Positions 21,717 to 43,735 of a stretch of 64,000 bases of DNA are shown here, piece by piece. Source of the stretch: Actinomycetota bacterium (GTDB lineage Bacteria; Actinomycetota; Actinomycetes; S36-B12); the NCBI GenBank assembly GCA_003456155.1, contig DMPC01000164.1, forward strand, positions 1,378-65,377, written 5' to 3'. Every line of letters begins with the position of its first letter. Within the stretch, counting starts at the first letter, position 1. Both the position numbers and the translations under genes were made by a program. Under the pieces are notes generated by a model. That model did no database searches. It saw nothing but the letters and a program-made list of their open reading frames with translations, and was not told the DNA's origin.

Positions 21717-21731
21717 CTACGATTTCCTTTC

Positions 21732-26478: not shown

Positions 26479-26552
26479 ATTGACGATAACCTACGATGCC
26501 GGTCATGGGAAGTGCTGCGAAACCGCTGAATTCGCCTCGGGAGGGGGGCGGC

Positions 26553-27182: not shown

Positions 27183-28315
27183 CCTCCCCACAAAACCGAC
27201 CCACGGGTCGGTTTTCCTCTCTCGATGGCCAAGCGCACCAAGACAGCCCACCCGGCCTACCCCTGGAGCTGCTCACCCCCTGGCTGTCAAGGCATGTCCC
27301 GGTACTCGACTCCTCTGCTCCGCTCACGGCACGGTTGCTGACCGGCGGCCGATCGAACCTGACGTACGAGATTGTCGACGCGGCCGGTCAGCGGTTCGCC
27401 CTGCGTCGCCCCCCTCTGGGCCATGTCATGCCAAGAGCACATGACATGGCCCGCGAGTATCGCGTCCTAGCCGGACTAGGAGCCGTGAACTTCGCCGTAC
27501 CAGACGTGCATGCGCTCTGCGAGGACGAGACCGTCATGGGAGTGCCGTTCATGCTCATGGGATTCGTCGACGGCCGCGTGATCGCCGACAGCGCGGACAC
27601 CGCGACACTCACACCGGAGCAGGCAGACACCGTCTCCGCCACCCTCATCGCAGGCCTTGCAGCACTCCATAAGGTGGACATCGCTTCTGCGGGACTTTCG
27701 GACTTCGGTCGACCGGAGGGCTACTTGCAGCGCCAGGTCGCGTTGTGGGGTCGCCAGTGGGAGAACACCAAGACGCGAGACATGCCGGAGATCGAAGCCC
27801 TGGCGCGGTGGTTGGCCCAACACGTGGCATACCTTCCGACCCTGCTTCCCACGTCCCTCGTGCATGGTGACTACCGGCTGGACAACGTCATCCTCGACCC
27901 AGGTCTGCGCAGTCTGCGCGCAGTGCTCGATTGGGAGATGTCCACACTGGGCGACCCCGTTACCGACCTGGCGATCACCCTCGTCTACTGGACGGAGTCC
28001 GGCGACGTGCTGCGCAGGGCCGTTCCGGTCGCACAGGACCTGATGTCCGGTCCCGGCTTCTGGTCACGTGAGCGAGTGATCGACGAGTACGCGAGCGCCA
28101 CAGGCTTCGACCTCTCCCATCTTCAGTTCGCAGTGGCTCTCGCCTGCTACAAGCTTGCCGTGATCATGGAGTCCATCCATTACCGGAGCCGAGCCGGACA
28201 CCAGATGGGAGCCACGACAGAACGCAACGAGGACATGGGTGCCGCCGCAGAGGGCCTTGCGGCGCTTGGCGTAGAGGTCATGAGCCGCGGGGCGCTCGAG
28301 GGCTTGCGTGCCTAG
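27179..28315 (+). CDS. Phosphotransferase-family (APH/ChoK-like) kinase
   Basis: 3' part of track ORF 26480..28315. GTG at 27179 overlaps the TetR TGA (alternative ATG at 27158). Catalytic loop LVHGDYRLDNVIL and metal motif VLDWEMSTLGDP. Confidence 0.8.
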   Translation: MTSPQNRPTGRFSSLDGQAHQDSPPGLPLELLTPWLSRHVPVLDSSAPLTARLLTGGRSNLTYEIVDAAGQRFALRRPPLGHVMPRAHDMAREYRVLAGLGAVNFAVPDVHALCEDETVMGVPFMLMGFVDGRVIADSADTATLTPEQADTVSATLIAGLAALHKVDIASAGLSDFGRPEGYLQRQVALWGRQWENTKTRDMPEIEALARWLAQHVAYLPTLLPTSLVHGDYRLDNVILDPGLRSLRAVLDWEMSTLGDPVTDLAITLVYWTESGDVLRRAVPVAQDLMSGPGFWSRERVIDEYASATGFDLSHLQFAVALACYKLAVIMESIHYRSRAGHQMGATTERNEDMGAAAEGLAALGVEVMSRGALEGLRA

Positions 28316-29070
28316 CCGGGGCGGAAATCACCAGAGATCGTGATCCCGCCATCGGCCGAGAGCATGATGCCGGTCACGAAGGATGCATCCGAGGAAGCAA
28401 GGAAGGACGCAACACCAGCGATCTCTTCGGGTCTGCCGAGTCGACGCAGAGGTGTCCTTCGAAGGATTGCCTCCTCAGCAAGAACTCCCTGATCGAACCC
28501 TGACCGCATGAGGTCCGTGTCGATGTAGCCGGGCGCAATGGCGACCACGCGAATCCCATGCTCGCCCCACTCTGCGGCGAGCGTTCGAGTGAGGCCGGTG
28601 ATCCCACTCTTCGTCGTGCTGTATGCGAGCCGGAGAGGAAGCCCGAAGGTCGAGGCGACCGATGCCAAGTTGATGATCACCGCGTTGTCGCCCTGCTGAA
28701 GAAGCGGGAAGGCAGAGCGGCAGCACCGCATCGTTCCCCCGAGGTTCACATCCAGCTCACGCTGCCATCCTGAGGTCTCGGTCTCCTCTGCCGGACGCCT
28801 GCTGATGATTCCCGCACTGTTGACGAGGACGTCCAGCCGACCGAAGCGCTCCTGAACCTCTGAAACGGCGTGGGCGACGCTTTCGTCCAGCGTCACATCC
28901 ATGACGATCCCGATCGACTCGTCCGCAGAGCCCAGTTCCTCCGCCAGCGCCACCGCCCCGACGCCGTTGACATCGGCAATCGCAACAGCGAGCCCGTCCA
29001 GCCGGAGGCGCCGTGCGACCGCAGCGCCCAGGCCCTGGGCGCCACCGGTCACGAGCGCGACCCGAGGCAT
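28312..29070 (-). CDS. SDR family oxidoreductase (candidate secondary-alcohol/cycloalkanol dehydrogenase)
   Basis: Track ORF 28312..29205. Start moved to Met46 (MPRVALVTGGAQGLGAAVA). Catalytic YSTTKSG. Divergent from the BVMO gene. Confidence 0.8.
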   Translation of the reverse strand: MPRVALVTGGAQGLGAAVARRLRLDGLAVAIADVNGVGAVALAEELGSADESIGIVMDVTLDESVAHAVSEVQERFGRLDVLVNSAGIISRRPAEETETSGWQRELDVNLGGTMRCCRSAFPLLQQGDNAVIINLASVASTFGLPLRLAYSTTKSGITGLTRTLAAEWGEHGIRVVAIAPGYIDTDLMRSGFDQGVLAEEAILRRTPLRRLGRPEEIAGVASFLASSDASFVTGIMLSADGGITISGDFRPG

Positions 29071-29144
29071 GGGAGGAGGGTCGCAGCCGACGATGGCCGC
29101 CCACTGACCCAGTTTCGGACGCCTGTCTCTCCCGCTCTGGCGAC

Positions 29145-29163
29145 GTGTCCAGAGATGGGACAC
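29145..29163. promoter_or_regulatory. Candidate operator: perfect dyad GTGTCC-N7-GGACAC carrying a GATGGGACACCC box
   Basis: Read directly as acGTGTCCAGAGATGGGACACcc. It is centred about 85 bp from both divergent starts (29070 minus, 29243 plus). It shares the 10-mer TGGGACACCC with the site at 7009. Confidence 0.4.
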
Positions 29164-29242
29164 CCGCCGCTGAACGAGGGTCTCAGGATGAAGTCTGCCG
29201 CCCAAGACGGGGCACGATGGCTCGGCTCGATGAGAGAGGACC

Positions 29243-30871
29243 GTGGAAGCGATGCCGGATGTAGTGGATGTCGATGTTGTCGTTATCGGTACGGGATTCA
29301 GCGGTATCTACGCCCTTCACAAGCTTCGGGATGGGCTGGGGCTGAACGTCCAGTCCTTCGAGGAGGCCGATGGCGTCGGCGGCACGTGGTACTGGAACAC
29401 ATATCCGGGCGCCCGCTCCGACACAGAAGTCAACGCCTACTGCTATCTCACCGACAAGGAGCTCTTCGAGGAATGGAAGTGGAGTGAGCGGTACCCGCGC
29501 CAGAAGGAGATCCTCGCCTACCTCAACCACTGCACTGACCGATGGGATCTTCGCCGCAGCATCCAGTTCAGCACACGGATCGAGAGCACTCGTTTCAACG
29601 AGGAGACTGGCCGCTGGGAGATCGAGACGAACAAGGGTCAGAAGTTCACGGCGCAGTTCGTGATTGAGGGAGTGGGTCTGCTCTCCTCCACGAACTACCC
29701 GGATTTCCCGGGCCAGAGCACCTTTGCCGGGCAGATCTACCACACCGCCCGCTGGCCCAAGGAGAAGGTGGACGTCACGGGCAAGCGCGTCGGCGTGATC
29801 GGTACAGGATCGAGCGGCACTCAGGTGATCGTCGAGATGGGGAAGGAGGCACAAGAGCTCTTTGTCTTCCAGCGGACACCGCAGTACTGCGTGCCTGCCA
29901 ACCACGGCCCGCTCGACCCGGAGAAGATGAAGCGGATCCTTGATGACTTCGAGGGCTACCGCGAGTCGGTTCTGCGATCCATCACCTCGTTCGGCTTCGA
30001 AGAGAGCCCGGTCCCGGCCATGAGCGTGTCCGCGGAGGAGCGCGAACGGGTGTTCGAGGACTCCTGGAGACAAGGGAACGGATTCCGGTTCATGTTCGCC
30101 TCGTTCAGCGACATTGGGGTGGACCCGGAGGCAAACAAGGCGGCCACCGACTTCCTGAAGAAGAAGATGGCCGAGACCATCAAGGACAAGAAGACTCTGG
30201 AGACGCTTACTCCCAAGGACCTCTGGGCCAAGAGGCCGCTGTGCAATGACGGCTACTTCGAGACCTTCAACAAGGATCATGTGCACCTTGTCGACGTCAA
30301 GGCAGATCCGATTGCAGCGATCACCGAGAAGGGGATCCGGCTCGAGAGCGGCGCCGAGTACGAGCTTGACGTCATTGTCCTTGCCACAGGGTTCGATGCA
30401 GTCTCAGGCATGTACCTGAAGATCGACCAGACAGGGCGCAAGGGCATCACCCTCCAGCAGAAGTGGGAGGAACGGCCACGCACCGCCTACGGGATGATGA
30501 GTGCCGGTTTCCCGAACATGTTCATGGTCTATGGCCCCATGGGACCGTTCACCAACCAGCCGCCGGTCCACGAATGGCAGGTGGACTGGATGGCTGACGC
30601 GATTCAGTACGTCCGAGACAATGGACTGCAGACCATTGAGCCCACCGAGGAGTTCGAGGAGGAGTGGATGCAGACCTGCGATGACATCGCCTACCAGACA
30701 CTCTTCATGAAGGTGAACTCCTGGATCAATGGTTCCAATGTCGTCGGCAAGCCTGTGACGAACTACTTCTACATGGGCGGCATGGGCGCCTACAACGATG
30801 TGGTCGGCGGGGCCAAGGAAGCCGGCTACCCCGGCTTCCGCACTGGCGGGGCCCTGTCGCATTCGGCGTAG
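29243..30871 (+). CDS. Type I Baeyer-Villiger monooxygenase (cyclohexanone/phenylacetone monooxygenase-like flavoprotein)
   Basis: 542 aa. FAD Rossmann VVIGTGFSG, the GGTWYWNTYPGARSD motif, BVMO fingerprint FAGQIYHTARWP (FxGxxxHxxxWP), and NADPH Rossmann GVIGTGSSG. Confidence 0.9.
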   Translation: MEAMPDVVDVDVVVIGTGFSGIYALHKLRDGLGLNVQSFEEADGVGGTWYWNTYPGARSDTEVNAYCYLTDKELFEEWKWSERYPRQKEILAYLNHCTDRWDLRRSIQFSTRIESTRFNEETGRWEIETNKGQKFTAQFVIEGVGLLSSTNYPDFPGQSTFAGQIYHTARWPKEKVDVTGKRVGVIGTGSSGTQVIVEMGKEAQELFVFQRTPQYCVPANHGPLDPEKMKRILDDFEGYRESVLRSITSFGFEESPVPAMSVSAEERERVFEDSWRQGNGFRFMFASFSDIGVDPEANKAATDFLKKKMAETIKDKKTLETLTPKDLWAKRPLCNDGYFETFNKDHVHLVDVKADPIAAITEKGIRLESGAEYELDVIVLATGFDAVSGMYLKIDQTGRKGITLQQKWEERPRTAYGMMSAGFPNMFMVYGPMGPFTNQPPVHEWQVDWMADAIQYVRDNGLQTIEPTEEFEEEWMQTCDDIAYQTLFMKVNSWINGSNVVGKPVTNYFYMGGMGAYNDVVGGAKEAGYPGFRTGGALSHSA

Positions 30872-31880: not shown

Positions 31881-33179
31881 TCAATCGGCTGCCTCGCTCG
31901 CGAGAACATCGCGGGTGACAGCAACAATCTCTTCGACGTTGCGGCGGGAGAAGGGGAGCGGAGGTCGAATCTTGATCGATGTGTTGTCCGGTCCACACTG
32001 ACCGACAAGGATTCCGGCGCGGCGATAGGCATTCAACGCTCGTAGACATGCCTTCGGGTCCAGCTCACCCTTCGCATCAGCGAACTCAATTGCCGCGAAG
32101 AGGCCACTCCCCCGAACCCGCGCGCGCGCTCCGCTAGCACGGGCAACGGAGCGCAGGCCCCCTTGCAGTTCAGCGCCCACGAGGCCAGCATGGTCGAGCA
32201 GACATTCATCCTTGATGACGTCAAGAACCGCCTCTGCCGCAGCCATGCAGACCGGGTTGCCCCCGTAGGTGTTGAAATAGCGCCCCTGGGATCCGAACCC
32301 GTCCACCAGCTCCGCGGTTCCCACGATCCCTGCCACGGGAAGGCCATTGGCCATGGACTTTCCCATGACGACGAGGTCCGGAGTCACTCCTTGGCGCTGG
32401 TGCCCCCAGAAGTGCGTCCCGGTTCGGCAGAAGCCGGCCTGCACCTCATCGGCGATCACGATTCCACCTGCGGCCTGCGCCTCCCGGGAGGCGGGCCCCA
32501 GCAGGCCCTCTGGCTCCAACCACACGCCGTCCGAAGCGAGCGCCATGTCCAGGAGAAGGGCGGAGAACCCGAATTCCGATCTCTGGAGGTCATCGATTGC
32601 CTCGCGCACGATTCGGGCGAATGCCTCGCCACGGTCCTCGTCATTGATCTCGCGAGGGAACGTCACGGTCCGGATCCACGGTTCCCGCTGCCAGGACGCG
32701 CCCAGAGAGGGGGTTACGGACGCAGCCAGTGCGGTCACTCCGTGATAGGCATGGGATGAGATGACTATGCCCTGAGGTCGTCCAGGCATGCGTGCCATGC
32801 GCAAAGCCAAGTCGATCGCCTCGCTGCCGGTACACGTGAACATGCTCCGTTCGAGAGGCTCATCGAAGGTGGCCAGCAGCTTCTCCGCATATCTGACGAT
32901 GTCCTCGGTGAGGTAGCGCGTGTGCGTATTCAGGATGGCAGCCTGCCGACACTGCGCCTCCACCACTCGAGGATGACAGTGACCGACTACGGGAACGTTG
33001 TTGTAAGCGTCCAGCAGTCGGGAACCGTCCGCCTCGATGATCTCGACACCCAAGGCGCGGACCGGCACCACGGGTGACTCATAGAACAGGCGGTAGGCGC
33101 GTCCCAAGACCTTCTGGCGGCGTTGCAGCAAATCCTCGCGCATCTCGGAGCGTCCCAGATCCTCGGGCAGCGGTGTCAC
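31881..33179 (-). CDS. Class III PLP-dependent aminotransferase-fold enzyme, AGXT2L (phospho-lyase)-like
   Basis: Track ORF 31881..33512. Start set at GTG 33179, which overlaps the kinase TGA (alternative ATG at 33143). Motifs AYNNVPVVGHCHPRVV, LNTHTRYL, HAYHG, DEVQAGFCRTG, and PLP-Lys context VMGKSMANGLPV. Confidence 0.8.
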   Translation of the reverse strand: MTPLPEDLGRSEMREDLLQRRQKVLGRAYRLFYESPVVPVRALGVEIIEADGSRLLDAYNNVPVVGHCHPRVVEAQCRQAAILNTHTRYLTEDIVRYAEKLLATFDEPLERSMFTCTGSEAIDLALRMARMPGRPQGIVISSHAYHGVTALAASVTPSLGASWQREPWIRTVTFPREINDEDRGEAFARIVREAIDDLQRSEFGFSALLLDMALASDGVWLEPEGLLGPASREAQAAGGIVIADEVQAGFCRTGTHFWGHQRQGVTPDLVVMGKSMANGLPVAGIVGTAELVDGFGSQGRYFNTYGGNPVCMAAAEAVLDVIKDECLLDHAGLVGAELQGGLRSVARASGARARVRGSGLFAAIEFADAKGELDPKACLRALNAYRRAGILVGQCGPDNTSIKIRPPLPFSRRNVEEIVAVTRDVLASEAAD

Positions 33180-34174
33180 GTCTTCACTCCTGTGCTCCTC
33201 CATGCCATGAGGGCATGGTCCTCGTTCAGGGCGCCCAGGGCATCCATCCGTCGACGGGCGCGATCCGCGTGCCTGAGCACGTACTCTGCCCTCTCCGGGC
33301 GATAGTGGGCTCGGGCGAGCGCATTGCCGAGAGCGAGGGCCAGACGACCCCGCATGAGTCCCGGAAGCACACGGAGTTCGTCGGGTCTGAGTGCAACGAC
33401 ACTGCCGTAGCCATGGATGAGAGACGCGAGCGCCGAATCCGGTGACGATGGGTCTCCTATGTCGGCAAGGTACGACCCGGTAACGGCAAGTTCGACGATG
33501 CGGGGTGCCCACACCGCATCGCCGAAGTCGATGAAGCCGACTCCTCCGCCGATCTGGAGAAGCACGTTGTCGGGATTGGCGTCATTGTGGATCGGCTGAC
33601 GCGGCAAGTCGTGCAACGCGGGGAGGACCGTGTCCTGAAGCTCCAGGAGAGACGCACGGATGCGCCCGTCATCCGAGCCCAGCGGCACCTGGTCGATGAG
33701 CGTCAGGGCTCCATCGGGTCGAGTGAGGTCCCACGGGGTTCGTCCTGATGACGAGGGAGCAGGCGCCTCTGCCAGGCACTGGTCCAGATGGGCGAGCCCT
33801 CGACCTACAACGGCGGCCGCCCCAGGCCGGTCGAGCAGCTCCGACCACGGCGTTCCGTGAACGAACGTCGTCACCCAACTGCGTCGCTCGTGTCCTGCTC
33901 CATCACGCATGAGGAGGTCGATGGCGCCGTCTGTGGCGGGCACGAGGGCTGGGCACGCGATGGCAGAACCCTCGAGAGCCCGAAGCAGCGCCAGGACAAA
34001 ACGGTCACGCTCCTCCTCCTGATCACGAGCGACGACTCGAAGGACAGACCGCTCCCCGGCCGAGTCGACGAGGAAGTTGTCGTCATGCTCGCCCGGGAGG
34101 CAGGAGACGGTGCCCCCCATTCCGTACCTCGCGCGCAAGTGGTCCACCACGAGGTCGAGGGGCATTCCCGTCAC
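33176..34174 (-). CDS. APH/homoserine-kinase-II-type small-molecule kinase (hydroxylysine/amino-alcohol kinase-like)
   Basis: 332 aa. GTG start 2 nt after the hyuB stop. Catalytic loop QPIHNDANPDNVLL and metal motif GFIDFGD. Confidence 0.75.
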   Translation of the reverse strand: MTGMPLDLVVDHLRARYGMGGTVSCLPGEHDDNFLVDSAGERSVLRVVARDQEEERDRFVLALLRALEGSAIACPALVPATDGAIDLLMRDGAGHERRSWVTTFVHGTPWSELLDRPGAAAVVGRGLAHLDQCLAEAPAPSSSGRTPWDLTRPDGALTLIDQVPLGSDDGRIRASLLELQDTVLPALHDLPRQPIHNDANPDNVLLQIGGGVGFIDFGDAVWAPRIVELAVTGSYLADIGDPSSPDSALASLIHGYGSVVALRPDELRVLPGLMRGRLALALGNALARAHYRPERAEYVLRHADRARRRMDALGALNEDHALMAWRSTGVKT

Positions 34175-34176
34175 GA

Positions 34177-35970
34177 TCAGCCCACGCCTGAGGCCTGGTG
34201 CCGCTGGCGGAGCTCTCGAGTCGCGACGTCGTCCACCTGAAGGCTGTCGTCGAGCGTCGTGCCGGTGAAGATCACCCCATAGACATCCCTTGCGCGCTCG
34301 GGGCTGACAAATCGGGCGAGGACGTCCAGCCGGACGGATTCGGGCTCCCGCTCGTATGGGCTGCCGTAGCCACCTCCCCCACTGAGGCGGTGCCCGAGGG
34401 TCTCTCCTACCGACATCGTCACGCCCCCAACGGCCGGAACCGGGTGCTCCTGCCCAAGGGGGTCGAGCAGAAAGGGCTCCTGCGGTGCGGCATCTCCTCC
34501 TCCTTGGGCACCGCGAGGCGGGTAGACGACTCCGTCGTTCGCATAGAAGGCCTGCATGGTTCCCGTCTTCGGTCCGAACCTCAGCACCGTTCCCGGCGCC
34601 CCGCGTCGTCTCCCGGCCCCCTCGGAATCAGTCCTGATCCGCAGCTCCTCGATTCTGATCGGGTACTTCTGCTCGTCAATCTCGATGCTGTCGCGAAACA
34701 TCAGACCGTTGGTCACGGCATTTCCGTAGGTCAGCCAGCCATCCACCTCAGGGCCGCCAGGCCCTCCCTGCGAACCGAGAAAGACCTGGTTGACATAGGG
34801 GCGGGCGGGGACATGCCGCTCGTCCATTCCGGAGATGACCGAGAAGCCCGTTCCGACGCTGCAGGCGCCTTCCGCGAGCCCCATACCCCCCCAGTGGTCC
34901 GCAAAGGTCTTCTGCGTGATGGTGACAAGCCGCTCACCCAGATTGGTCGTCGCTACGGACGTCGAGTGCGGGAAGGTGGGAATGCCGACAACGCACCCCT
35001 CGCGCAGCAGGATGTCTATGCGGCGGAAGCTTCCGCTGTTGCGCGGGATATCCGCATCAAGGCTGTTCAGAAGCCCCGTCATCACGTTATTGCGAGAGCA
35101 GGTCTCGGACTCGTTGAGTCCAGCCTCGAGACAGTCGATGTTGTCGCGCAGGTCAAGGGTGATGCGCTGCTCACCGGGATCCACGGTGATCGTCACTTGG
35201 ATAGGAATTCCATCGGGCATCACAGGCTCCAGCGGATCAGCCATTCCATGACCCGTGACTGTCCCTGCCGAGAGCTTCCCGATGGCGTGAGCCATCTTTC
35301 GCTCGGAGTAGTCGAACCACTGCTCGATGAACGCCTTGACCGTGTCCTTGCCGTGGCGCTTGCACACCTCCTTGAGTGCCGATTCGCCGATGCGGGCGGC
35401 GCCAATCATTGCGAGGTAGTCGCCGTACCATTGCTCGGGTACACGGATCCGTCTCTTGCACATTCGGATGATGTCGTCAATGTCACGGCGATCCCGCTGC
35501 ACCCGAACAGCAGGGAAGATCAAGGCTCCTTCCTCGTAGATGTCCTTGGCGAAGGGCATGTAGGTCGTCGGCTGTGAGTTTCCGATGTCTGCCTGATGCG
35601 CCTTGGCGAGGGCAGTGAAGATGTGCTCTCCCTCATAGAAGACGGGGACGAGGATGGTGTGATCGGCTGCGTGAGTGTTGCCTAGGTATGGATCGTTGTG
35701 GAGAAAGGCGTCTCCTTCGGAGATGTCGTCATGAAACTCTGCCACGGCAGCGCCAAGGCGCTCCCCGCCGATGACGTGAACGGGAAGTCCTTCAGCGGTG
35801 GCCAGCAGTCGGTGATCTGCGGTGATGATGGAGCAGGAGAAGTCCCTCGCCATGTTGAGCACTGCCGATCGGCCGCTGCGCAGCAGCGTGTTCTCCATCT
35901 CGCGGACGATTCCATCCAGGCGATTCGCGATGACTGTCATCTGAACGAGGTCGATGTCAGGCATGCTCAT
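34177..35970 (-). CDS. hyuB: Hydantoinase B/oxoprolinase-family subunit (ATP-dependent amidohydrolase/carboxylase family)
   Basis: Track ORF 34177..35997. Start at Met10 (MSMPDIDLVQMTVIANRLDGIVREMENTL), overlapping the hyuA stop by 14 nt. About 597 aa, typical HyuB length. Confidence 0.8.
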   Translation of the reverse strand: MSMPDIDLVQMTVIANRLDGIVREMENTLLRSGRSAVLNMARDFSCSIITADHRLLATAEGLPVHVIGGERLGAAVAEFHDDISEGDAFLHNDPYLGNTHAADHTILVPVFYEGEHIFTALAKAHQADIGNSQPTTYMPFAKDIYEEGALIFPAVRVQRDRRDIDDIIRMCKRRIRVPEQWYGDYLAMIGAARIGESALKEVCKRHGKDTVKAFIEQWFDYSERKMAHAIGKLSAGTVTGHGMADPLEPVMPDGIPIQVTITVDPGEQRITLDLRDNIDCLEAGLNESETCSRNNVMTGLLNSLDADIPRNSGSFRRIDILLREGCVVGIPTFPHSTSVATTNLGERLVTITQKTFADHWGGMGLAEGACSVGTGFSVISGMDERHVPARPYVNQVFLGSQGGPGGPEVDGWLTYGNAVTNGLMFRDSIEIDEQKYPIRIEELRIRTDSEGAGRRRGAPGTVLRFGPKTGTMQAFYANDGVVYPPRGAQGGGDAAPQEPFLLDPLGQEHPVPAVGGVTMSVGETLGHRLSGGGGYGSPYEREPESVRLDVLARFVSPERARDVYGVIFTGTTLDDSLQVDDVATRELRQRHQASGVG

Positions 35971-38047
35971 GGGGAGTCTCCATGTAGTAGTTGCCACTGG
36001 GCATCACGGTGATCGTGTGTCCGGGGTACAGGACGATCGTGGTGGTGGGCTCATGCACGATCGCCGGCCCGAGCAGCGAGTGCCCTACCGGCATGCTGGG
36101 ACCCCAGTAGACGGGGACAGGCACCAGATGGACCCCGTCAAAACTGGAATCCTGCACACGCAAAGGCTCAAGAACAGGCTGCCGCTCTGCGTCAGGCACT
36201 GAGCGTGACGGGTGCCGTAGGCGTGCGGTGGCGCGAGCCGTCCACGAGAGGATCTCCAGGGTCTGGTTCGGCTCACGCACTCCGAACATCCGTTCGTGAG
36301 TATCGTGAAATGTCTCCTCGATGAGGGCCACATCGCCATCGCTGAGTGCAGCATCGGGCAGGGGCACCGTGAGCTCCCAGGCCTGCTGTCGGTATCGAGC
36401 CTCAGCAGCGAACTGCACCTCCGTCTCAATGGCGAGCCCCGGGCTCAGTCCCGACAGAAAACGGTCAGCAGATTCGCTCACTTGCGCGAGGGCTGCGTTG
36501 GCTGCCCGACTGTCGAAGGCTGCGGTCTCCACGTAGGCCACGCAGGTGAACTCGTGGATGACATCCGCGAAGAGGGCGCCGCATGCGCTCATCGCTCCGG
36601 CCGTCTGTGGGATGAGCACTCCACGAGTACCGAGCTCCTCCGCGATCCGACCGATACTCATGCCGGAGCCTCCGCCTCCAGCGACGATGACCACCTCACG
36701 CGGGTCTATTCCGCGAGCAACCGTGGCCTCGCGCGACGACGCCGCAATGTTGTCGCATGCGATCGTCAGGGTGGCATGGGCCATCTGAAGGAGAGTCATG
36801 CCCAGGGCTTCGGAAAGGGGCGCGAAGGCTCTCTCTGCGGCATCACGGTCCAGGTGGAGGCTGCCCTCCATGAAGTTGCTCGAATCGAGGTAACCCAGGA
36901 GCAGAGCGGCGTCCGTGACAGTCGGCAGGGAGCCACCGCGCCCGTAGCAGGCAGGTCCCGGACTGCTCCCCGCACTCTGAGGCCCCACCTTGAGGAGCCC
37001 CCCGGAGTCGATCCAGGCGATGGACCCTCCCCCAGCCCCGATGCTCTTGACATCGACGGCTCGTGTTCCCGTGATGTTCCCGATCCATCGACCGCCAAGC
37101 CAAGTCTCGTTGGTGAACTCGATTTGCCCCGAGCGCACAATTCCGATGTCAAAGGTCGTTCCACCGGTGTCCGCGACGAGGAGGTCGAATTCCGCAGCAC
37201 CGCCCTCTAGATCGCGATTCGCCTCATGGACGGCACTGACGGGTGCCATCGAGGGACCCGATCCGATGGAGTACACCGGCCGTTCAGCAACGTCCTGCGG
37301 TGACCAAGAGCCCCCGTAGGACGTGGAGATGAAGAGGTTTCCCATGAAGCCCTCGCCACGAAGATCCTGCTCCAGACCTCTGATGAACTGCTGCATCAAG
37401 GGCTTCAGGGAGGCATCGATCACCGTGGCAGAGGCCCGTCTGTACTCGCGGACTACGGGATTGAGCTGGTGCGAGAGTGTGAAGGCCAAGTCTGGAGCAT
37501 GCTCTTCCATGAGTTGGCCCACCCGCAGTTCATGGGCAGAGTTGGCAATCGACCAGAGAAGGCAGACTCCGACAGCCTCCACTTCCTGCTCCTGAGCGGA
37601 CCTGATCGCAGTGATGACCGAGGCCTCGTCAAGGGGTCGGAAGACGGTGCCCTCCGCGTCCATGCGCTCATCGATCTCAAAGGTGAGGTGCCGAGGAACG
37701 TACGGCTGCCCGTAGGGAATCTGTCGGAAGGGATCGGGCTTTCCTCCCTCGCGCAGCAGGAGGACGTCCGGGAATCCCTTGGTCGTGAAGAATGCCGTCC
37801 TGCTCGCCTTGCCCTCCACGACGGCGTTCGTCGAGCGCGTGGTGCCGTAGTTGAATCGTGCCGCCTGCTCGAGAAGAGCCCCCCTGGAGGTGGACATGCG
37901 TCGGGCAATGGCGTCGAGTGCCTCTGCTATCGCGTCATAGGCGCGGTCACGAGACGTCAGCGCCTTGGCGATCTGGAGCTGCCCGCTCTCATCCGCCACG
38001 GCGACATCCGTGAAGGTCCCTCCCGTGTCGACAGAGATGGTGAGCAC
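35957..38047 (-). CDS. hyuA: Hydantoinase A/oxoprolinase-family subunit
   Basis: 696 aa. The N-terminus MLTISVDTGGTFTDV and a second ADTGGTTFDIG motif form the actin-like ATPase folds typical of HyuA. Confidence 0.85.
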   Translation of the reverse strand: MLTISVDTGGTFTDVAVADESGQLQIAKALTSRDRAYDAIAEALDAIARRMSTSRGALLEQAARFNYGTTRSTNAVVEGKASRTAFFTTKGFPDVLLLREGGKPDPFRQIPYGQPYVPRHLTFEIDERMDAEGTVFRPLDEASVITAIRSAQEQEVEAVGVCLLWSIANSAHELRVGQLMEEHAPDLAFTLSHQLNPVVREYRRASATVIDASLKPLMQQFIRGLEQDLRGEGFMGNLFISTSYGGSWSPQDVAERPVYSIGSGPSMAPVSAVHEANRDLEGGAAEFDLLVADTGGTTFDIGIVRSGQIEFTNETWLGGRWIGNITGTRAVDVKSIGAGGGSIAWIDSGGLLKVGPQSAGSSPGPACYGRGGSLPTVTDAALLLGYLDSSNFMEGSLHLDRDAAERAFAPLSEALGMTLLQMAHATLTIACDNIAASSREATVARGIDPREVVIVAGGGGSGMSIGRIAEELGTRGVLIPQTAGAMSACGALFADVIHEFTCVAYVETAAFDSRAANAALAQVSESADRFLSGLSPGLAIETEVQFAAEARYRQQAWELTVPLPDAALSDGDVALIEETFHDTHERMFGVREPNQTLEILSWTARATARLRHPSRSVPDAERQPVLEPLRVQDSSFDGVHLVPVPVYWGPSMPVGHSLLGPAIVHEPTTTIVLYPGHTITVMPSGNYYMETPHEHA

Positions 38048-38097
38048 GTCCTCATCACAGCATGCGGCAGCCGTCAGCCGGATGGAAAACCCATCAC

Positions 38098-38109
38098 ATT
38101 TTGAGACAC
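38098..38109 (+). promoter_or_regulatory. ATTTTGAGACAC box in the hyuA/SDR divergent region
   Basis: Read directly. ATTTTGAGACACTTCC differs at only two positions from the reverse complement of 26448-26463 (ATTTTGGGACACCTTCC). Confidence 0.3.
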
Positions 38110-38142
38110 TTCCGCCCGAATCGGTGGTGCCACAATCAGGCT

Positions 38143-38889
38143 GTGCCGAAGCGTAGGGTCCTCATCACGGGGGCCTCTCGCGGCATCGGAGCCGCCATCG
38201 CCAGGGCTTTCGCCCAGGAGGGTGACCGCGTCGCCATCCACTATTCCACGGCCAAGTCCGATGCGGAAGCCGTCCTGGAAGCCCTAGCGGGCGAGGGGCA
38301 CCTCGTGGTGGGGGCGGACCTGCGGCGCCGCGACGAGATCCAGGCGCTCATGGAGGCAATACAGCAGGAGTGGGGTGGCCTCGATGTTCTCGTCAACAAT
38401 GCCGGGATCGTTCATCGGGTCGACACTGCGTGTGAGGACGTGGCTGAGTGGTCCATGGCGTGGGATGACACGTTCGAGGTCAATGTCCTGGGCCCCGCGG
38501 TGCTCACATGGCATGCCCTACGCCTCATGGGTCCGGGAGGCCGGATCGTGAACATGGCATCCCGCGCAGCCTTTCGAGGGATGCCAGACAGCATTCCCTA
38601 CGCCGCCAGCAAGGCGGCCGTGGCGGCCATGTCGCAATCACTGGCGCAGTCGCTGGCGGAACGGGGTATCGCCGTCACGGCGGTGGCACCGGGCTACGTG
38701 GAAACCGACATGGGACGTCTCGTGCTCGACGGTGAGCAGGGCGAGGCTATTCGTCGGCAGAGTCCGTTCCATCGAGTCGCCACGAGCGAGGAGATCGCTC
38801 ACGCCATTCTCTATCTCGCGAGTCCGGCCGCCGAGTGGGCTTCAGGGGCCATCCTCGACCTCAATGGCGCCTCGCACCTGCGCATGTAG
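38143..38889 (+). CDS. SDR family oxidoreductase (divergent from the hyu operon)
   Basis: Track ORF 38062..38889. GTG at 38143 gives VPKRRVLITGASRGIGAAIA. Catalytic YAASKAAV. Confidence 0.8.
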   Translation: MPKRRVLITGASRGIGAAIARAFAQEGDRVAIHYSTAKSDAEAVLEALAGEGHLVVGADLRRRDEIQALMEAIQQEWGGLDVLVNNAGIVHRVDTACEDVAEWSMAWDDTFEVNVLGPAVLTWHALRLMGPGGRIVNMASRAAFRGMPDSIPYAASKAAVAAMSQSLAQSLAERGIAVTAVAPGYVETDMGRLVLDGEQGEAIRRQSPFHRVATSEEIAHAILYLASPAAEWASGAILDLNGASHLRM

Positions 38890-38952: not shown

Positions 38953-39993
38953 TCAGGCAGGAGCACGGGCCTCTTCTCGCGGACGTGCCTCCTCCATCGA
39001 CGCCGTTCTCCTCCGGGCACGTGCGGAGAGAAGGCGGTACACCGACTCCCTGATGATCACGACGATCAGGATGACCAGTGACTGAACGATGAATTGAGTC
39101 GACGTCGGCCATCCCGCAGCAAGAACGATCTGGTTCAGTTGCGTGAGAAACAGGGCGGCGACACTGCTGGCGATCACGGAGGCGATTCCACCGCTGAGGG
39201 CAGTGCCTCCCAGAACCACAGCCGCAACAGAGGGTAGGAGGTAGGGGTCACCGATGAAGATGTTCGGAGTCTGTACGTAACCAGCAAGCAGAGCACCCGC
39301 AATTCCGTAGCATGCACCAGCAGCCGCATAGGCGAGGGTCTCGTAACGCACCACTCGAAGCCCGAGAACCTCCGCTGCCGGGGGGCTCACGCCCATCGCC
39401 GTCAAGCGCCATCCGACCGTCGTCTTCTTCGTGATGAAGGCAATGACCACGATCACGACAAGCGCGATGGCCAGGGTGTTCGGGATTCCGAGAGCGCGCT
39501 CGAGGGTGAACGACTTGAGCGCTTCGGTAGCACCATAAGGGGTGCCCTGCGTGATCCACAGAACAAAGCCGTAGAGGACAGCATTCATGGCCAGCGTCAC
39601 GATCAGCGAGGTGGCCTTGAGCCATGAGACCGTGATACCCGAGATGAGCCCAAAGGCCGCGGGAACCAGGACCGCAGCGAGCACACCCAGCCAGAGCCTG
39701 CTGTCGTCGTTGTTGGGGAGGGCTGTCACCAGAACAGCAGCCAAGGACATCATCCCGGGGACGGAGAGGTCGAATCCCCTCTGCTGAACCACCAGCGTCT
39801 GCCCGATGGCAACAAGCGCGAGCACGGCAGCGAACGGAAGCATGCCGTTGATGGCAGGCCACGATGTGCTCCCTGGAGCAAGGAGTGGACTGATGAGAAA
39901 GAGAGCCACCGTGGCTATCACGATGGAGGCGGTACTCCCGTAGAAGAGGCTCCAGATATTGAACCCGCGAGGGCGTCCAGCATTCTCGTCCAT
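38953..39993 (-). CDS. ABC transporter permease (RbsC type, second TMD of locus 2)
   Basis: 346 aa, polytopic. Motif QRGFDLSVPGMMSL. ATG lies 1 nt after the stop of the fused gene. Confidence 0.85.
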   Translation of the reverse strand: MDENAGRPRGFNIWSLFYGSTASIVIATVALFLISPLLAPGSTSWPAINGMLPFAAVLALVAIGQTLVVQQRGFDLSVPGMMSLAAVLVTALPNNDDSRLWLGVLAAVLVPAAFGLISGITVSWLKATSLIVTLAMNAVLYGFVLWITQGTPYGATEALKSFTLERALGIPNTLAIALVVIVVIAFITKKTTVGWRLTAMGVSPPAAEVLGLRVVRYETLAYAAAGACYGIAGALLAGYVQTPNIFIGDPYLLPSVAAVVLGGTALSGGIASVIASSVAALFLTQLNQIVLAAGWPTSTQFIVQSLVILIVVIIRESVYRLLSARARRRTASMEEARPREEARAPA

Positions 39994-39994
39994 G

Positions 39995-42478
39995 TCAGGC
40001 CTTCTTCCGTCGCGTAGCCGCGAACAGGACGGTGGAGCCCAGGAGGAGTATGCCCATGAGCCAGTACTGCCATGACTGTCCGAGCTGTAGGAACGTCGTC
40101 ACAGTCTGGACCTGAACGATGAGAAAGGCGCCGAAGAATGCACCGATGTACGAACCCCGGCCTCCCATGACTCTGGCTCCACCCAGGACGACAGCGGTGA
40201 TGCTGGCCAAGGTATACGTGATCCCCGAAGACGGATCTCCGATGCCCACCTGAGCCATTAGGAGAATGCCGGCCGGGATCACGAGGGCTGACGTGGCGAC
40301 GTAGGACCAGAACCGGACTCTTCCGACGCGAACTCCGATACGAGCAGCCGCCTCAGGGTTGGAGCCGATGGCCCGAAGTGCGAGGCCCGCGCGCGATCTT
40401 CTCAGGAGCACTTCCAAGCAGAGCATGCCGACGATCACCACGATGATGGCCACCGGGATTGGCCCGATCGTCGCGCTGATGATGTCGGTGACACGCTCAT
40501 CGATCGATCCCTCCGGCCGATCTCGCAGCGTGAGGGAAAGGCCTCTGAGCAGCATGAACATCGCGAGGGTCACGATCACCGCGTTGACATTCAGTCCTTG
40601 GATGATTCCGCCATTGATGGCTCCAACGGCGAGCCCCACGAGAATCACGAGCACGAAGCCGACCGCGATCCAGTAGGAAGCAACGCCTTCAATGATGTAG
40701 AACGATCCGACGACGAGCATGAAGCCGGATAAGGGACCGACGGAGAGGTCGAATCCACCCCCGAGCATTGCCGTCTGCTGGGCCATCGCTACCACCGCGA
40801 GAGGCGCGAGAAGCGCCAGAAGGCCCGTGAAGTTGCGAGCCGTCAGGTAGAACTCGTTCTGGGAGGCAACGTAGGCGCCCAGGGCCACAATGAGGAAGAC
40901 CAGAACGATTGACGCCGCGTAGTCACCTCGAAGCCAGGCAGGGATCTGAATCCGTCGACGCGTGGACGCCACCCTCTCGCGCACGGATGTGGATACAAGT
41001 GCTGCTGTCGTGATCGCTGTCTCGCTGATGTCATCGCCCGTGAGCTCACTCACGATTCGTCCCCGCGAAAAAATCACGACACGATCGCACAACCCTGCAA
41101 GTTCGAGGTTGTCAGACGACTTCACGACCACGGCAGCGCCATCATCGGCTGCCTGACGGATGATGTTGTAGATCTCCACCCTTGCTCCGGCATCGACGCC
41201 CTGAGTCGGTTCGTCAGCGATGATGACCGACTTCTGAGCGGATGTGCGCCCCATGAGAATCTTCTGCTGATTCCCACCCGAGAGCGATGAGACCGCGGTG
41301 GTCAGACTCGGGGTCTTGATGGCGAAGCGATCAACGGCCGTAGACGCCACGGTCCGCACTTGTCCTGCCCGCACAACTCCACCCGTGGCAGTAGCGGAGA
41401 TGTCTCCGAGAGCGAGGTTGTCGGCCACGCTGAGGGGCATGAAGACACCCTCGGCATGACGATCAGCAGGAATGAAGGCGAGCCCTGCCGATGCCAAGGC
41501 TGCTGCCGATCCACTGCGAACGGCATGGTCATTCACCCGAAGGCTTCCAGAGGACTCGCGAAGACCGCAGAGGGCCCTCAGGAATTCGTCCTGCCCCTCA
41601 CCCTGCACGCCGGCAATGCCGACAACCTCTCCGCTCCTCGCATGGAAGTCAACCGATCCGAAGCCCTCTCCACGGAAGTTCTTTACCTCGATCCCACCCC
41701 CTGTTATCGACGACTCATCGGCCTTCCGCGGGAAGACAGCATCAAGTTCCCGGCCGATAACCAGCGAGATGATCTGGTGCTCATCAACATCATCAGCTTG
41801 GAAGGTGCCTCGAACCTTGCCGTCTCGCAGCACGGTGATGCGATCGGCGATCGCCTTCACTTCATGGATGCGGTGCGAGATGTAGACGACGGATCCGCCA
41901 GCTGAGACGAGTTCACGTACCTTGGCAAAGAGACGCTCGGACTCCTCCAGATTGAGGTGCTCCGTTGGCTCATCCAGAATGAGAACGAGCGGCGCGGCAG
42001 CCAGCGCCCGGGTCATCTCGACGATCTGCTTCTGCTCGACAGTGAGATCCTCGACACGGGATGACGGATCCACGTTGAGTTCCCAGGGGTCGAGGCATTC
42101 CCGCGCCCATGCGCGGGCTCGCTTGGCGCTGGAGATCCAGCGCGTGCCCCGTGAGAGCTCCATGTTCTCCAGGACCGTCAACTGCGGGAGCAGGGCTGGA
42201 GTCTGGCGAACGATGGCAAGCCCATATGCCTGCGCCAGCATCGGATCAGCCGTCTCCAGCGTGTGTCCACAGATGACAACGGACCCTGTGTCTGGGGTGA
42301 GCGCCCCTGAAGCCACCGCCATCAGCGTGGACTTCCCGGCACCGTTCTCGCCTACCAGGGCGTGAACCTCGCCCCTGCGCACTTCGAGTGACACGTCGGA
42401 CAGAGCGCGAACGCCCGGGAACGACTTCGATACACCCTCAAGCGACAGGAGGAGCTCCCCAGACACAGGATCCGTCAT
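39995..42478 (-). CDS. Fused ABC importer component: NBD-NBD (CUT2 type) joined to an RbsC-type permease domain; paralog of 17711-20269
   Basis: Uninterrupted 827-aa ORF. Walker A GENGAGKST, NBD2 signature LSGGNQQKILMGR, Walker B VIIADEPTQGVD. C-terminal polytopic domain with LGGGFDLSVGPL. Confidence 0.85.
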   Translation of the reverse strand: MTDPVSGELLLSLEGVSKSFPGVRALSDVSLEVRRGEVHALVGENGAGKSTLMAVASGALTPDTGSVVICGHTLETADPMLAQAYGLAIVRQTPALLPQLTVLENMELSRGTRWISSAKRARAWARECLDPWELNVDPSSRVEDLTVEQKQIVEMTRALAAAPLVLILDEPTEHLNLEESERLFAKVRELVSAGGSVVYISHRIHEVKAIADRITVLRDGKVRGTFQADDVDEHQIISLVIGRELDAVFPRKADESSITGGGIEVKNFRGEGFGSVDFHARSGEVVGIAGVQGEGQDEFLRALCGLRESSGSLRVNDHAVRSGSAAALASAGLAFIPADRHAEGVFMPLSVADNLALGDISATATGGVVRAGQVRTVASTAVDRFAIKTPSLTTAVSSLSGGNQQKILMGRTSAQKSVIIADEPTQGVDAGARVEIYNIIRQAADDGAAVVVKSSDNLELAGLCDRVVIFSRGRIVSELTGDDISETAITTAALVSTSVRERVASTRRRIQIPAWLRGDYAASIVLVFLIVALGAYVASQNEFYLTARNFTGLLALLAPLAVVAMAQQTAMLGGGFDLSVGPLSGFMLVVGSFYIIEGVASYWIAVGFVLVILVGLAVGAINGGIIQGLNVNAVIVTLAMFMLLRGLSLTLRDRPEGSIDERVTDIISATIGPIPVAIIVVIVGMLCLEVLLRRSRAGLALRAIGSNPEAAARIGVRVGRVRFWSYVATSALVIPAGILLMAQVGIGDPSSGITYTLASITAVVLGGARVMGGRGSYIGAFFGAFLIVQVQTVTTFLQLGQSWQYWLMGILLLGSTVLFAATRRKKA

Positions 42479-42508: not shown

Positions 42509-43735
42509 CTACTGGAACAGCACCGTCAGCTGTTCTGGGGTGAGCTGCGACGAGAGGATGGCGTCCGGAGGAAGGTCCTTGTTGCAGACCGGTGCCGGGG
42601 CATCCTGCTCCGTGGAGTCCTCGCTCAGGGGAAGGCTGATGATGGAGGGCTCAGGGTTGTCGATTCCCTGGAACTCCGCGACAGCGCGGCGAAGAGCCAA
42701 GCGAGAGATCCACGTCCGCGAGGAGATCGTCGCGATCTGGTAGTCGGGATTATCCGGACCCTTGTTCTCGTACCAGAGGCAGGCGAACTCGTTGGAGTCA
42801 TTAGCCGACCACGGTGGGATCGGCTTCCCCGCTGCCTGGAAGGCTCGGATGCCACCCACTGATCCGCCGCCGTAGTCAGACACGATTCCGTCGATCTCGC
42901 CGTACTTCGTGATGAGACCGGCCACCACCTTTTGAGTCTCGCCCGGCTCCCAGTTGGTCACCGCGAACCCTTCATCCCGGTTGAGGAGCGTCACACCCGG
43001 GTTGGCCTCCACCGCCTCAAGGACGCCGTCGAAGACGGCCTGGGAGTATCCGTTGCCGGCTGTACCACCGAGCATGACGAGATTGCCTTCCCCGCCCATC
43101 TGCTTGATGGTCCACTCGGCGAGGGACTTCCCGTAGGCCTTGACGTCCTCTGCCACGAAGCCTGCGTAGTCCTCACCGGGCGTGCCTCCGGGACCGGCCA
43201 CGTAGGGCACTACCGCGACGCCCGCCTCGGTCGCCGCCTTGACTGCAGGCAGGAGCGCCTCGGAGGCATCAGCGAACGTGATGATCACATTGGCGCCCTG
43301 AGCCACGAGGCCGTTCATGTCCGCGATGGCCTTCTGGGGATCAGCCTGACCGTCCGTGTAGAGCACCTTTGTGATGTTGGGGCACTTCGCTGCTTCGTCC
43401 TCAAACTCCGCGCGTGTGATCTTCCGCCAGGAGTTGCCTCCGAAGCCATCGGCAAGCGCCACGACCATCTCCTTGTCACCGCACAGGGAGGTGATGTCGG
43501 GGAGAAGGTCGGCCGTTGTGCCCGTCGTGGGCCCGGCCGCTGCAGCCTCCTCTGCGGGAGCCTCCTCTGCCGGGGCCTCCTCTGCGGGAGCCTCCTCCGC
43601 AGGAGCCTCCTCTGCCGGAGCCGCCGCCTCGGAGGACGCGCCGCCCTCGGAGTCTGCACTCGGTGTGGCGCAACTCGCGACGAGCAGTGCGCCAGCCGCG
43701 AGTGCCACCACCATTCCCTTCGTACTTGTCCTCAC
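42509..43735 (-). CDS. ABC transporter substrate-binding lipoprotein (PBP1 sugar-binding type) with an APAEE repeat linker
   Basis: 408 aa. Lipobox LLVASC, five APAEE units, then a binding fold with FGGNSWRK. Confidence 0.8.
   Translation of the reverse strand: MRTSTKGMVVALAAGALLVASCATPSADSEGGASSEAAAPAEEAPAEEAPAEEAPAEEAPAEEAAAAGPTTGTTADLLPDITSLCGDKEMVVALADGFGGNSWRKITRAEFEDEAAKCPNITKVLYTDGQADPQKAIADMNGLVAQGANVIITFADASEALLPAVKAATEAGVAVVPYVAGPGGTPGEDYAGFVAEDVKAYGKSLAEWTIKQMGGEGNLVMLGGTAGNGYSQAVFDGVLEAVEANPGVTLLNRDEGFAVTNWEPGETQKVVAGLITKYGEIDGIVSDYGGGSVGGIRAFQAAGKPIPPWSANDSNEFACLWYENKGPDNPDYQIATISSRTWISRLALRRAVAEFQGIDNPEPSIISLPLSEDSTEQDAPAPVCNKDLPPDAILSSQLTPEQLTVLFQ
43545..43622 (-). repeat. Five in-frame 15-nt tandem repeats (gcctcctc(t/c)gc(g/c/a)g(g/a)(a/g)(g/c)) encoding APAEE
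   Basis: Visible directly in the sequence. Located just after the lipobox of the SBP CDS. Confidence 0.85.

Follow-up and report, generated by a model that had tools for sequence, protein, structure and literature searches.

Within a 64,000-nucleotide stretch of contig DMPC01000164.1 from an uncultured Actinomycetota bacterium (the whole of which is referred to here as the window), four minus-strand genes form an operon that encodes the two subunits of an ATP-dependent enzyme of the hydantoinase/caprolactamase family (HyuA and HyuB, collectively HyuAB), an APH-fold small-molecule kinase and a class-III pyridoxal 5′-phosphate (PLP) enzyme of the phospho-lyase clade (Table 1). The operon is probably dedicated to the catabolism of a small, polar, hydroxylated cyclic amide, namely a lactam or possibly a cyclic carbamate, and the evidence tips slightly towards a general scheme in which the kinase and the lyase act on an amino alcohol generated by HyuAB. 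As far as we could find, a conserved unit of HyuAB, kinase and lyase has not been described previously and represents known enzyme families in a new assembly; a search of 8 million full texts returned no relevant paper joining a phospho-lyase, a hydantoinase-type enzyme and a kinase, in line with the first-pass annotation of this DNA, which knew of no described pathway combining the three activities.

The genes are arranged head-to-tail in the order hyuA, hyuB, kinase and PLP enzyme, with junctions of −14, +2 and −4 nt that were read directly in the sequence: the end of hyuA covers the ATG of hyuB in a 14-nt overlap, 2 nt separate the TGA of hyuB from the GTG of the kinase, and the TGA of the kinase overlaps the GTG of the PLP enzyme as GTGA. 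The tight coupling of the four genes that had been claimed at first pass is therefore present. Their products match Pfam families with E-values from 1e-22 to 1e-125, comprising Hydant_A_N (1e-69) and Hydantoinase_A (1.5e-41) in HyuA, Hydantoinase_B (9e-125) in HyuB, APH (1.7e-22) in the kinase and Aminotran_3 (2e-64) in the PLP enzyme. A scan for sigma-70 promoters and terminators gave no signal above the shuffled expectation, and the sigma-70 consensus was absent from the 95-bp region upstream of hyuA.

Conservation of the operon in two architectures

HyuAB lies beside a kinase–lyase pair in approximately 12 dereplicated independent loci, which fall into two architectures; neighbouring genes were defined by all-versus-all clustering of open reading frames (ORFs) together with gene tables. 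Because many independent contigs show this gene order, the arrangement is far more than a chance juxtaposition, and the linkage between HyuAB and the kinase–lyase pair is not accidental.

The window-type architecture runs (SDR2)–SBP–ABC–permease–(Zn-ADH and/or divergent SDR)–hyuA–hyuB–kinase–lyase, where SDR stands for short-chain dehydrogenase/reductase (SDR2 being the second such gene in the window), SBP for solute-binding protein, ABC for ATP-binding cassette and ADH for alcohol dehydrogenase; it is found in L001, L002, L003/L004, L167, L168–L170 and a JGI contig. Identity to the window across L001–L004 is 84–95% for HyuB, the best conserved of the cluster's proteins, 69–86% for HyuA and 37–67% for the kinase, and the range of 56–79% for the lyase also draws on P0025, P0028 and P0029. 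The Rhodococcus-type architecture consists of hyuA, hyuB and a permease with 12 transmembrane segments, a divergent PucR regulator and then the kinase–lyase pair, and is represented by L005 (R. gordoniae), L010 (Pseudonocardia sp. MH-G8), L171 (Rhodococcoides fascians), L176 and, in part, L087. HyuB of this type is 73–79% identical to that of the window (L005, L010 and L087), and a comparison over other kinase-linked loci gave 78–95%. The existence of this second architecture goes beyond the first-pass annotation, as does the finding that conservation extends beyond the four genes to an ABC importer of the CUT2 type and dehydrogenases, with which the operon forms a larger unit.

Sampling from either side delimits the linkage. 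Among the best 80 of 214 HyuB relatives in species-representative public genomes (52–73% identity), a kinase–lyase pair was found only in L010. A lyase directly downstream, with no HyuAB, was seen for 38 of 80 metagenomic kinase relatives (28–37% identity), and HyuAB accompanied one of the 80, that of L087. In neighbour-joining (NJ) trees the kinase-linked HyuB sequences form one clade, and the HyuAB-linked lyases form one 17-tip clade inside the phospho-lyase clade; HyuAB is on the same contig for 13 of these tips, the contigs of L174 and L175 end too early, and L172 and L173 are without HyuAB. The kinase–lyase pair is thus kept with this particular HyuAB clade, which answers the question of neighbourhood co-conservation that had been raised at first pass.

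In L172 (8934–14035) and L173, which constitute the one clear exception to the co-occurrence, the pair is followed by genes for a binding protein of the SBP_bac_1/8 type and a permease. The cluster of L005 is located on a 385-kb linear plasmid, pDND3A (NZ_CP101468.1), beside CoA-transferase, enoyl-CoA hydratase and Amidohydro_3 genes. In L168–L170, the Zn-ADH gene upstream of hyuA (4006–5051) is split into ORFs of 139 and 188 aa, and a transposase of the rve family follows the operon (11463–12332), which suggests that the gene is decaying and that the cluster is mobile.

Assignment of the encoded enzymes

The best solved relatives of HyuA are the caprolactamase subunit CapA (PDB 6yra_A, 9e-109) and, after it, a fused N-methylhydantoinase (7hk5), and HyuB matches CapB (6yra_B) at 1.3e-54; membership of the ATP-dependent hydantoinase/caprolactamase family, as claimed at first pass, was thereby borne out. 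The ATP-site motifs of ASKHA proteins (DxGGTxTD, DxGGT and GxxPGP), as well as the metal tetrad and Tyr136 of CapB, have been defined previously (PMC8453981). HyuA carries the former as DTGGTFTD (residue 7), DTGGTT (residue 293) and GSSPGP (residue 360), matching those of CapA, and in HyuB residues D43, H100, D103 and H125 together with Y137 align with D41, H99, D102, H124 and Y136 of CapB, leaving the active sites of both subunits intact. HyuA scores 368 bits against caprolactamase and 319 bits against N-methylhydantoinase, versus 223 bits against acetophenone carboxylase and 155 bits against acetone carboxylase; the corresponding values for HyuB are 189 and 171 versus 80 and 51 bits. The junctions of the operon leave no space for the gene of a third (gamma) subunit.

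Orthology to CapAB was considered and rejected, as the scores against the NCBIfam CapA and CapB equivalog models, 489 and 256 bits, fall short of their cut-offs of 1000. In a comparison with the substrate pocket of CapB, approximately 10 of 15 positions differ in HyuB, the pocket being largely hydrophobic and the alignment weak in the loops. By these comparisons HyuAB is best classed as a lactamase-type enzyme, distinct from carboxylases and not orthologous to CapAB. An ordinary 5-oxoprolinase, the identity that would have told against the first-pass proposal, is not what was found, since HyuAB is of the lactamase/hydantoinase type and an orthologue of no named enzyme. Hydantoin was likewise rejected as the first-choice substrate, given that an N-carbamoylase is not conserved and that the Amidohydro_3 gene occurs only in L005.

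The motifs quoted at first pass were all located, with IHNDANPDNVLL at residue 195 and GFIDFGD at residue 213 of the kinase, and YNNVPVVGHCHPRVV at residue 59, LNTHTRYL at residue 83 and VMGKSMANGLPV at residue 271 of the PLP enzyme. The catalytic elements H196-N197-D198-x-N200-xx-N203 and D216-F217-G218-D219 of the kinase are invariant among 14 homologues. For both the kinase and the PLP enzyme, the best NCBIfam match is PRK06148/PRK06149, which describes proteins of approximately 1000 aa in which an N-terminal kinase precedes a domain of aminotransferase fold at the C-terminus; the kinase aligns to residues 20–337 of the fused model PRK06148 (2.4e-43), that is, to its kinase part. Homologues at 66–70% and at 33% identity carry the name hydroxylysine kinase (JGI, UniRef). 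Its sole match in the PDB at E ≤ 1e-3 is homoserine kinase (2ppq, 5.5e-5), and at this threshold no similarity was found to the solved aminopropanol kinase of M. smegmatis, a structure that we take to be present in the PDB. An exact-sequence look-up of the window kinase returned no match, the deposited protein having a different start.

Conservation differs sharply between HyuB and the kinase, whose genes are 2 nt apart: identity is 95% for HyuB versus 67% for the kinase in L001, and 84 versus 37% in L003. The HyuB and lyase trees unite the window and Rhodococcus types, whereas the kinase tree splits them. This divergence of the kinase could be the result of fast evolution or of kinase replacement.

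A search of the whole PDB with the PLP enzyme returned the Arthrobacter phospholyase A1RDF1 (5g4i; 5e-85, 289 bits, 39% identity) and human ETNPPL (6tor; 1.5e-70, 241 bits, 36% identity) versus 157 bits (4.7e-45) for the best transaminase; identity to a transaminase of the neighbouring type is 30%. The Schiff-base lysine K274 (in VVMGK) and the aspartate D244 that contacts the pyridine nitrogen (in DEVQ) are kept. In an alignment of 38 lyase-clade sequences and nine transaminases, D211, Q247, G273, N278, Y301-F302 and N308 are common to at least 87% of the former and differ in the latter, and alignment position 393 holds Arg in transaminases, Ser in other lyases and Gly in the window enzyme; these clade-specific residues may mark function. 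NJ trees in which the neighbouring-type transaminases serve as the outgroup nest the PLP enzyme in one clade with 5g4i and 6tor. Its closest solved relative, A1RDF1 of Arthrobacter aurescens (5g4i/5g4j), has the same lyase-clade residues. Unlike A1RDF1, which falls outside it, the window enzyme belongs to a HyuAB-linked subclade that differs from the remaining lyase clade by S215A, T271V and S393G. The resemblance to the AGXT2L branch, noted at first pass, is in this way supported by phylogenetic placement in the ETNPPL/A1RDF1 phospho-lyase clade, outside the transaminases, and the enzyme is predicted to eliminate phosphate.

Proposed pathway and alternative explanations

The gene content of related clusters offers a clue to function. 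The next HyuAB clade (Conexibacter/Patulibacter; L007–L009 and L012) combines a polyamine-type ABC importer, HyuAB, an aldehyde dehydrogenase (ALDH) and a class-III enzyme that groups with true transaminases, a layout that reads as the classical set converting a lactam to an ω-amino acid, a semialdehyde and a diacid. In the HyuAB clade of the window the kinase and the lyase take the place of the transaminase, as would be expected if the ring-opened amine bears a neighbouring hydroxyl group.

In L171, L176 and an ENA contig, the lyase gene is followed by co-directional genes for a glutaryl-CoA dehydrogenase (GCDH), an ALDH and a CoA-transferase. The L171-type acyl-CoA dehydrogenase is clearly a GCDH (3swo, 3e-202; human GCDH, 1.7e-106), the ALDH finds its best matches among C5-semialdehyde dehydrogenases, and the family-III CoA-transferase best matches a succinate–glutarate CoA-transferase. 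In these loci the trio is followed by a gene for an EamA transporter, either an exporter or an importer, and L087 holds the same GCDH (90% identity). The Rhodococcus-type permease encoded after hyuB, with approximately 12 hydrophobic segments and a weak match to cytosine permeases (NCS1-like), suits a small neutral heterocycle. The flanks of window-type loci contain a thiolase (L002 and L167) or a glutarate-type CoA-transferase and an SDR (L003). The logic proposed at first pass, by which a cyclic amide would be opened to a hydroxy-amine and converted through its O-phosphate to a carbonyl compound, NH3 and Pi, gains comparative support, because the sister HyuAB clusters use a transaminase and an ALDH, and the Rhodococcus-type clusters continue into glutarate/glutaryl-CoA enzymes. 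Beyond that earlier proposal, the carbon skeleton is probably C5.

Two further observations concern these downstream genes. In L174 (4405–5589) and L175 (4308–5492), a 394-aa ORF after the lyase matches both Acyl-CoA_dh_N and Aldedh, and is probably the product of a deletion that fused the gcdH and ALDH genes that are intact in L171 and L176. In L154 (2592–8247) and L092 (10001–15467), a GCDH homologue (45–46% identity) is encoded after a kinase–lyase pair that has no HyuAB, accompanied in L154 by a CoA-transferase; the connection of the pair to glutaryl-CoA metabolism therefore extends beyond the HyuAB-linked clade.

In the proposed pathway, the compound would be imported, here by the adjacent CUT2 ABC system, and HyuAB would open its ring at the cost of ATP, probably by way of an activated lactim that undergoes hydrolysis at the metal site of HyuB, to give an ω-amino acid with a hydroxyl group on the carbon next to CH2-NH2. 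The APH-type kinase would phosphorylate this hydroxyl, and the PLP enzyme, in place of a transaminase, would eliminate the phosphate in a 1,2-fashion to yield an ω-aldehyde acid, NH3 and Pi. The aldehyde-acid would then be oxidized and enter CoA-dependent metabolism, which in the Rhodococcus-type route would proceed from glutarate semialdehyde to glutarate, glutaryl-CoA and crotonyl-CoA. ETNPPL and PHYKPL convert H2N-CH2-CH(OPO3)-R to OHC-CH2-R, NH3 and Pi. With glutarate semialdehyde as the product, the substrate of the lyase would be 5-amino-4-phosphonooxypentanoate, that of the kinase 5-amino-4-hydroxypentanoate, and that of HyuAB 5-hydroxy-2-piperidone (a δ-lactam) or a cyclic carbamate giving the same amino alcohol. 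The step order and the substrate that we infer in this way would amount to an undescribed bacterial pathway for iminosugar-like hydroxylated δ-lactams or related cyclic carbamates, in which a lactamase feeds a 'phosphate-assisted deamination' to glutarate semialdehyde; this complete version is put forward tentatively, and the specific C5 substrate is rather doubtful for the window's own cluster, to which the C5 route would have to be transferred.

Several points weigh against the proposed pathway. The substrate is read from neighbouring genes only, and the C5 assignment is transferred from Rhodococcus-type loci, where identity to the window is about 78% for HyuB, about 51–53% for the lyase and only about 34% for the kinase, because the window has no GCDH in its 64 kb and no adjacent ALDH, the nearest lying approximately 20 kb away. 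The literature search found no natural occurrence of 5-hydroxy-2-piperidone or 5-amino-4-hydroxyvalerate. L172/L173, from one organism, hold a member of the lyase clade and no HyuAB within 10 kb, and the kinase–lyase pair is missing from Leucobacter L017, which shares the importer and SDR2 with the window and encodes a HyuAB relative (as well as an amidase, a GntR regulator and a Baeyer–Villiger monooxygenase, BVMO). Window-type kinases form a deep branch separate from the Rhodococcus-type kinases, and all of the trees are NJ trees without support values (no bootstrap). Finally, the scheme assigns no step to either SDR or to the Ahr-like Zn-ADH; these enzymes may act on the aldehyde product or, if the lactam resembles a sugar more closely, on its additional hydroxyl groups, the latter being consistent with the CUT2 importer.

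It is also conceivable, with a small but real probability, that the nutrient is an open-chain amino-hydroxy acid or a precursor of one, such as 5-hydroxylysine, and that HyuAB only reopens a lactam formed spontaneously. ω-Amino acids cyclize, and there are precedents for such salvage in 5-oxoprolinase for glutamate and in the valerolactam-opening OplBA for 5-aminovalerate; the existence of clusters with kinase, lyase, GCDH and CoA-transferase but no HyuAB (L154 and L092), and of an amine-type ABC importer beside the HyuAB-less pair of L172/L173 with a lyase of the same clade, is in keeping with this possibility. It is harder to reconcile with the position of hyuAB at the head of the operon in translational coupling to the kinase, with HyuB as the most conserved protein of the cluster, or with the Rhodococcus-type hyuAB unit, whose cytosine-permease-like transporter suits a neutral heterocycle, not a zwitterionic amino acid.

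Somewhat less probable again is that two independent modules travel together, HyuAB acting on a lactam or hydantoin and the kinase–lyase pair providing nitrogen from ethanolamine, 1-amino-2-propanol or hydroxylysine. The pair is indeed widespread and self-standing, as seen in the 38 of the 80 sampled kinase loci without HyuAB, often with an SDR upstream, and in S. meliloti L006; A1RDF1, labelled a phospholyase in its PDB entry, presumably acts on O-phosphoethanolamine. Against independence stand the overlaps and the 2-nt junction that join the genes, the persistence of the linkage in two gene orders, in distantly related actinobacteria and on a plasmid, and the matching clades formed by the linked HyuB and lyase sequences.

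A carboxylase of the acetone/acetophenone type, with a ketone such as an amino-ketone, supplied by the SDR or ADH enzymes, as its substrate, would account for the presence of those genes and of an AcoR/MimR-like regulator, as in acetone and acetophenone carboxylase operons, and the same protein superfamily does include carboxylases (PMC8453981). This explanation is very improbable in view of the well higher scores of both HyuA and HyuB against caprolactamase and N-methylhydantoinase than against carboxylase subunits, the lack of room for a third small subunit gene and the lactam-type set of transaminase and ALDH in the sister clusters. That the PLP enzyme is a genuine ω-transaminase for the amino acid released by ring opening, like its counterpart in the caprolactam pathway, with a kinase that is unrelated or regulatory, is scarcely credible, since the assignment to Aminotran_3 only in Pfam/NCBIfam and the public annotation of relatives as 'aspartate aminotransferase family' or 'GABA aminotransferase-like' are set against a sequence approximately 130 bits closer to two solved phospho-lyases than to any solved transaminase, the presence of the lyase-clade residues, the missing transaminase Arg at position 393 and a kinase that always precedes the PLP enzyme.

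The favoured scheme, with HyuAB as the source of the amino alcohol used by the kinase and the lyase, has partial parallels in known systems. The pathway of the RMM microcompartment runs from aminoacetone through 1-amino-2-propanol and its O-phosphate to propionaldehyde. As in that M. smegmatis pathway (PMC6787980, PMC8007038), a dehydrogenase, an amino-alcohol kinase, a class-III phospho-lyase and an aldehyde would be involved, an SDR being present beside the pair in many loci; unlike it, the window contains HyuAB and no shell proteins, and the product would be an acid entering CoA metabolism. In P. putida, valerolactam is degraded with OplBA via 5-aminovalerate, glutarate and glutaryl-CoA. 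The two-subunit ATP-dependent lactamase and the deamination of an ω-amino acid to a semialdehyde would be shared with this route and with the caprolactam catabolism of P. jessenii, which uses CapAB and a class-III aminotransferase (PMC6061476, PMC8453981), and the Rhodococcus-type genes would continue as in the C5 route with glutarate, a CoA-transferase and GCDH. In contrast to both lactam pathways, deamination would be achieved by a kinase and a phospho-lyase, the adjacent PLP enzyme being of the lyase type and not a transaminase. The human enzymes HYKK/AGPHD1 and PHYKPL/AGXT2L2, as well as ETNPPL, are those of Veiga-da-Cunha et al. (2012), as cited in PMC8154272. Similarly to human HYKK/PHYKPL, an APH-fold kinase is paired here with a class-III PLP enzyme of (predicted) phosphate and ammonia elimination, and the carbon would end in glutaryl-CoA metabolism, as the Rhodococcus-type clusters suggest. 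Unlike the human pair, that of the window lies in an operon with a lactamase-type HyuAB and an importer, and an ALDH and a glutarate-type CoA-transferase occur without 2-aminoadipate enzymes, which would argue for a C5 acid over hydroxylysine.

Bacterial homologues of ETNPPL/PHYKPL are very numerous (more than 7,900 proteins at E ≤ 1e-60 in one search) and, to our knowledge, a physiological substrate has been established for almost none of them; the ATP-dependent amidases of the HyuAB type are just as poorly characterized. The cluster links both families in a conserved operon and provides a testable pathway with a short list of candidate substrates. It also points to a general design option for amines that bear a neighbouring hydroxyl group, namely the exchange of reversible transamination for an irreversible phosphate elimination paid for with ATP. 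The principle is not surprising, but the system is specific, conserved and directly testable. If the proposed pathway is correct, it would bring new specificities, namely a 5-hydroxy-2-piperidone lactamase, a 5-amino-4-hydroxypentanoate kinase and the corresponding phospho-lyase, and a first physiological role, in heterocycle catabolism, for the large bacterial HYKK/PHYKPL-like family. Practical interest in ATP-dependent lactamases stems from the mild hydrolysis of stable five- to seven-membered lactams (PMC11033972, PMC8453981), and a specificity for hydroxylated lactams would widen this toolbox.

Surrounding genes

Table 1. Features of the operon and of its surroundings in the window
Feature	Position	Strand	Remarks
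hyuA, ATP-binding (ASKHA) subunit	35957-38047	(-)	696 aa
hyuB, metal-binding hydrolytic subunit	34177-35970	(-)	597 aa counted from ATG
APH-fold small-molecule kinase, hydroxylysine-kinase-like	33176-34174	(-)	332 aa
Class-III PLP enzyme, phospho-lyase (ETNPPL/PHYKPL/A1RDF1) clade	31881-33179	(-)	432 aa
SDR1, divergent SDR oxidoreductase	38143-38889	(+)	248 aa; putative role in the pathway
Divergent hyuA/SDR1 intergenic region	38048-38142		95 bp; presumed promoter/operator, from gene arrangement only
CUT2-type ABC permease	38953-39993	(-)	Pfam BPD_transp_2; best NCBIfam match AraH-like
Fused ABC ATPase (two cassettes) and permease	39995-42478	(-)	827 aa; Pfam ABC_tran x2 + BPD_transp_2
Solute-binding protein of the importer, lipoprotein-type	42509-43735	(-)	Pfam Peripla_BP_4, 1e-35
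SDR2, second SDR, heads the transporter genes	43823-44548	(-)	Pfam adh_short_C2, 1.4e-63
GAF/degenerate AAA+/HTH_8 regulator (AcoR/DhaR/MimR-like)	44777-46618	(-)	Pfam HTH_8, AAA_lid_14, GAF; best NCBIfam match DhaR-like
TetR gene, APH-type kinase, SDR and BVMO beside the operon	26496-30871		Kinase 27158-28315, SDR 28312-29205, BVMO 29243-30871
Second CUT2-type ABC locus	16603-22745		Fe-ADH 16603-17754, ATPase-permease 17711-20269, SBP 20361-21716, permease 21732-22745

The importer genes upstream of hyuA recur with the operon. A permease of the same type is encoded upstream of hyuA in L001, L003, L002 (as a fragment), L167, L168 and the JGI contig; the fused ATPase-permease is 75–89% identical in L001/L003 and 53% identical in Leucobacter L017, and the corresponding values for the solute-binding protein are 89–94 and 63%. 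No clue to the ligand of the latter emerged from the PDB search, which gave only distant sugar-binding relatives (best 4pe6, 6.5e-16). Behind its lipoprotein-type N-terminus, this protein has a low-complexity (AEEAP)n repeat linker. SDR2 is 98% identical over a fragment in L001 and 62% identical in L017, where it lies beside the same transporter. SDR1 (Pfam adh_short_C2, 4e-56) has orthologues of 76–83% identity at the same divergent position in L001 and L002, and SDRs of 248 and 258 aa, identified by Pfam only, occupy this position in L167 and the JGI contig. The GAF/HTH_8 regulator is tentatively regarded as a candidate regulator of the operon; related contigs end before its position.

As stated at first pass, shell proteins are absent: a tblastn search of the 64-kb window with an approximate PduA sequence as query found no bacterial microcompartment (BMC) shell genes (best E-value 2.2), and no BMC domain was present among the Pfam-scanned neighbours.

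Downstream of the operon, on the other strand, lie genes for a rhodanese and a BVMO, which were rejected as core members of the pathway, being absent from L002, L003, L167, L168 and all Rhodococcus-type loci. A BVMO of 40% identity is encoded in the metagenome-assembled genome of Leucobacter L017 (12712–15576), between HyuAB and the same ABC importer. With the second CUT2-type locus and a paralogue of the GAF/HTH_8 regulator at 24617–26419, the window looks like an island of paralogous units for the uptake and catabolism of small oxygenated compounds.

Among the kinase–lyase pairs without HyuAB, an SDR gene stands directly upstream of the kinase in L123, L134, L146, L147, L159 and L164, and the recurrent triad of SDR, kinase and lyase resembles, by analogy, the aminoacetone/aminopropanol logic. 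In L006, from a megaplasmid of S. meliloti (7254–11290), the pair lies beside an SDR and a four-gene ABC transporter composed of a substrate-binding protein, an ATPase and two permeases.

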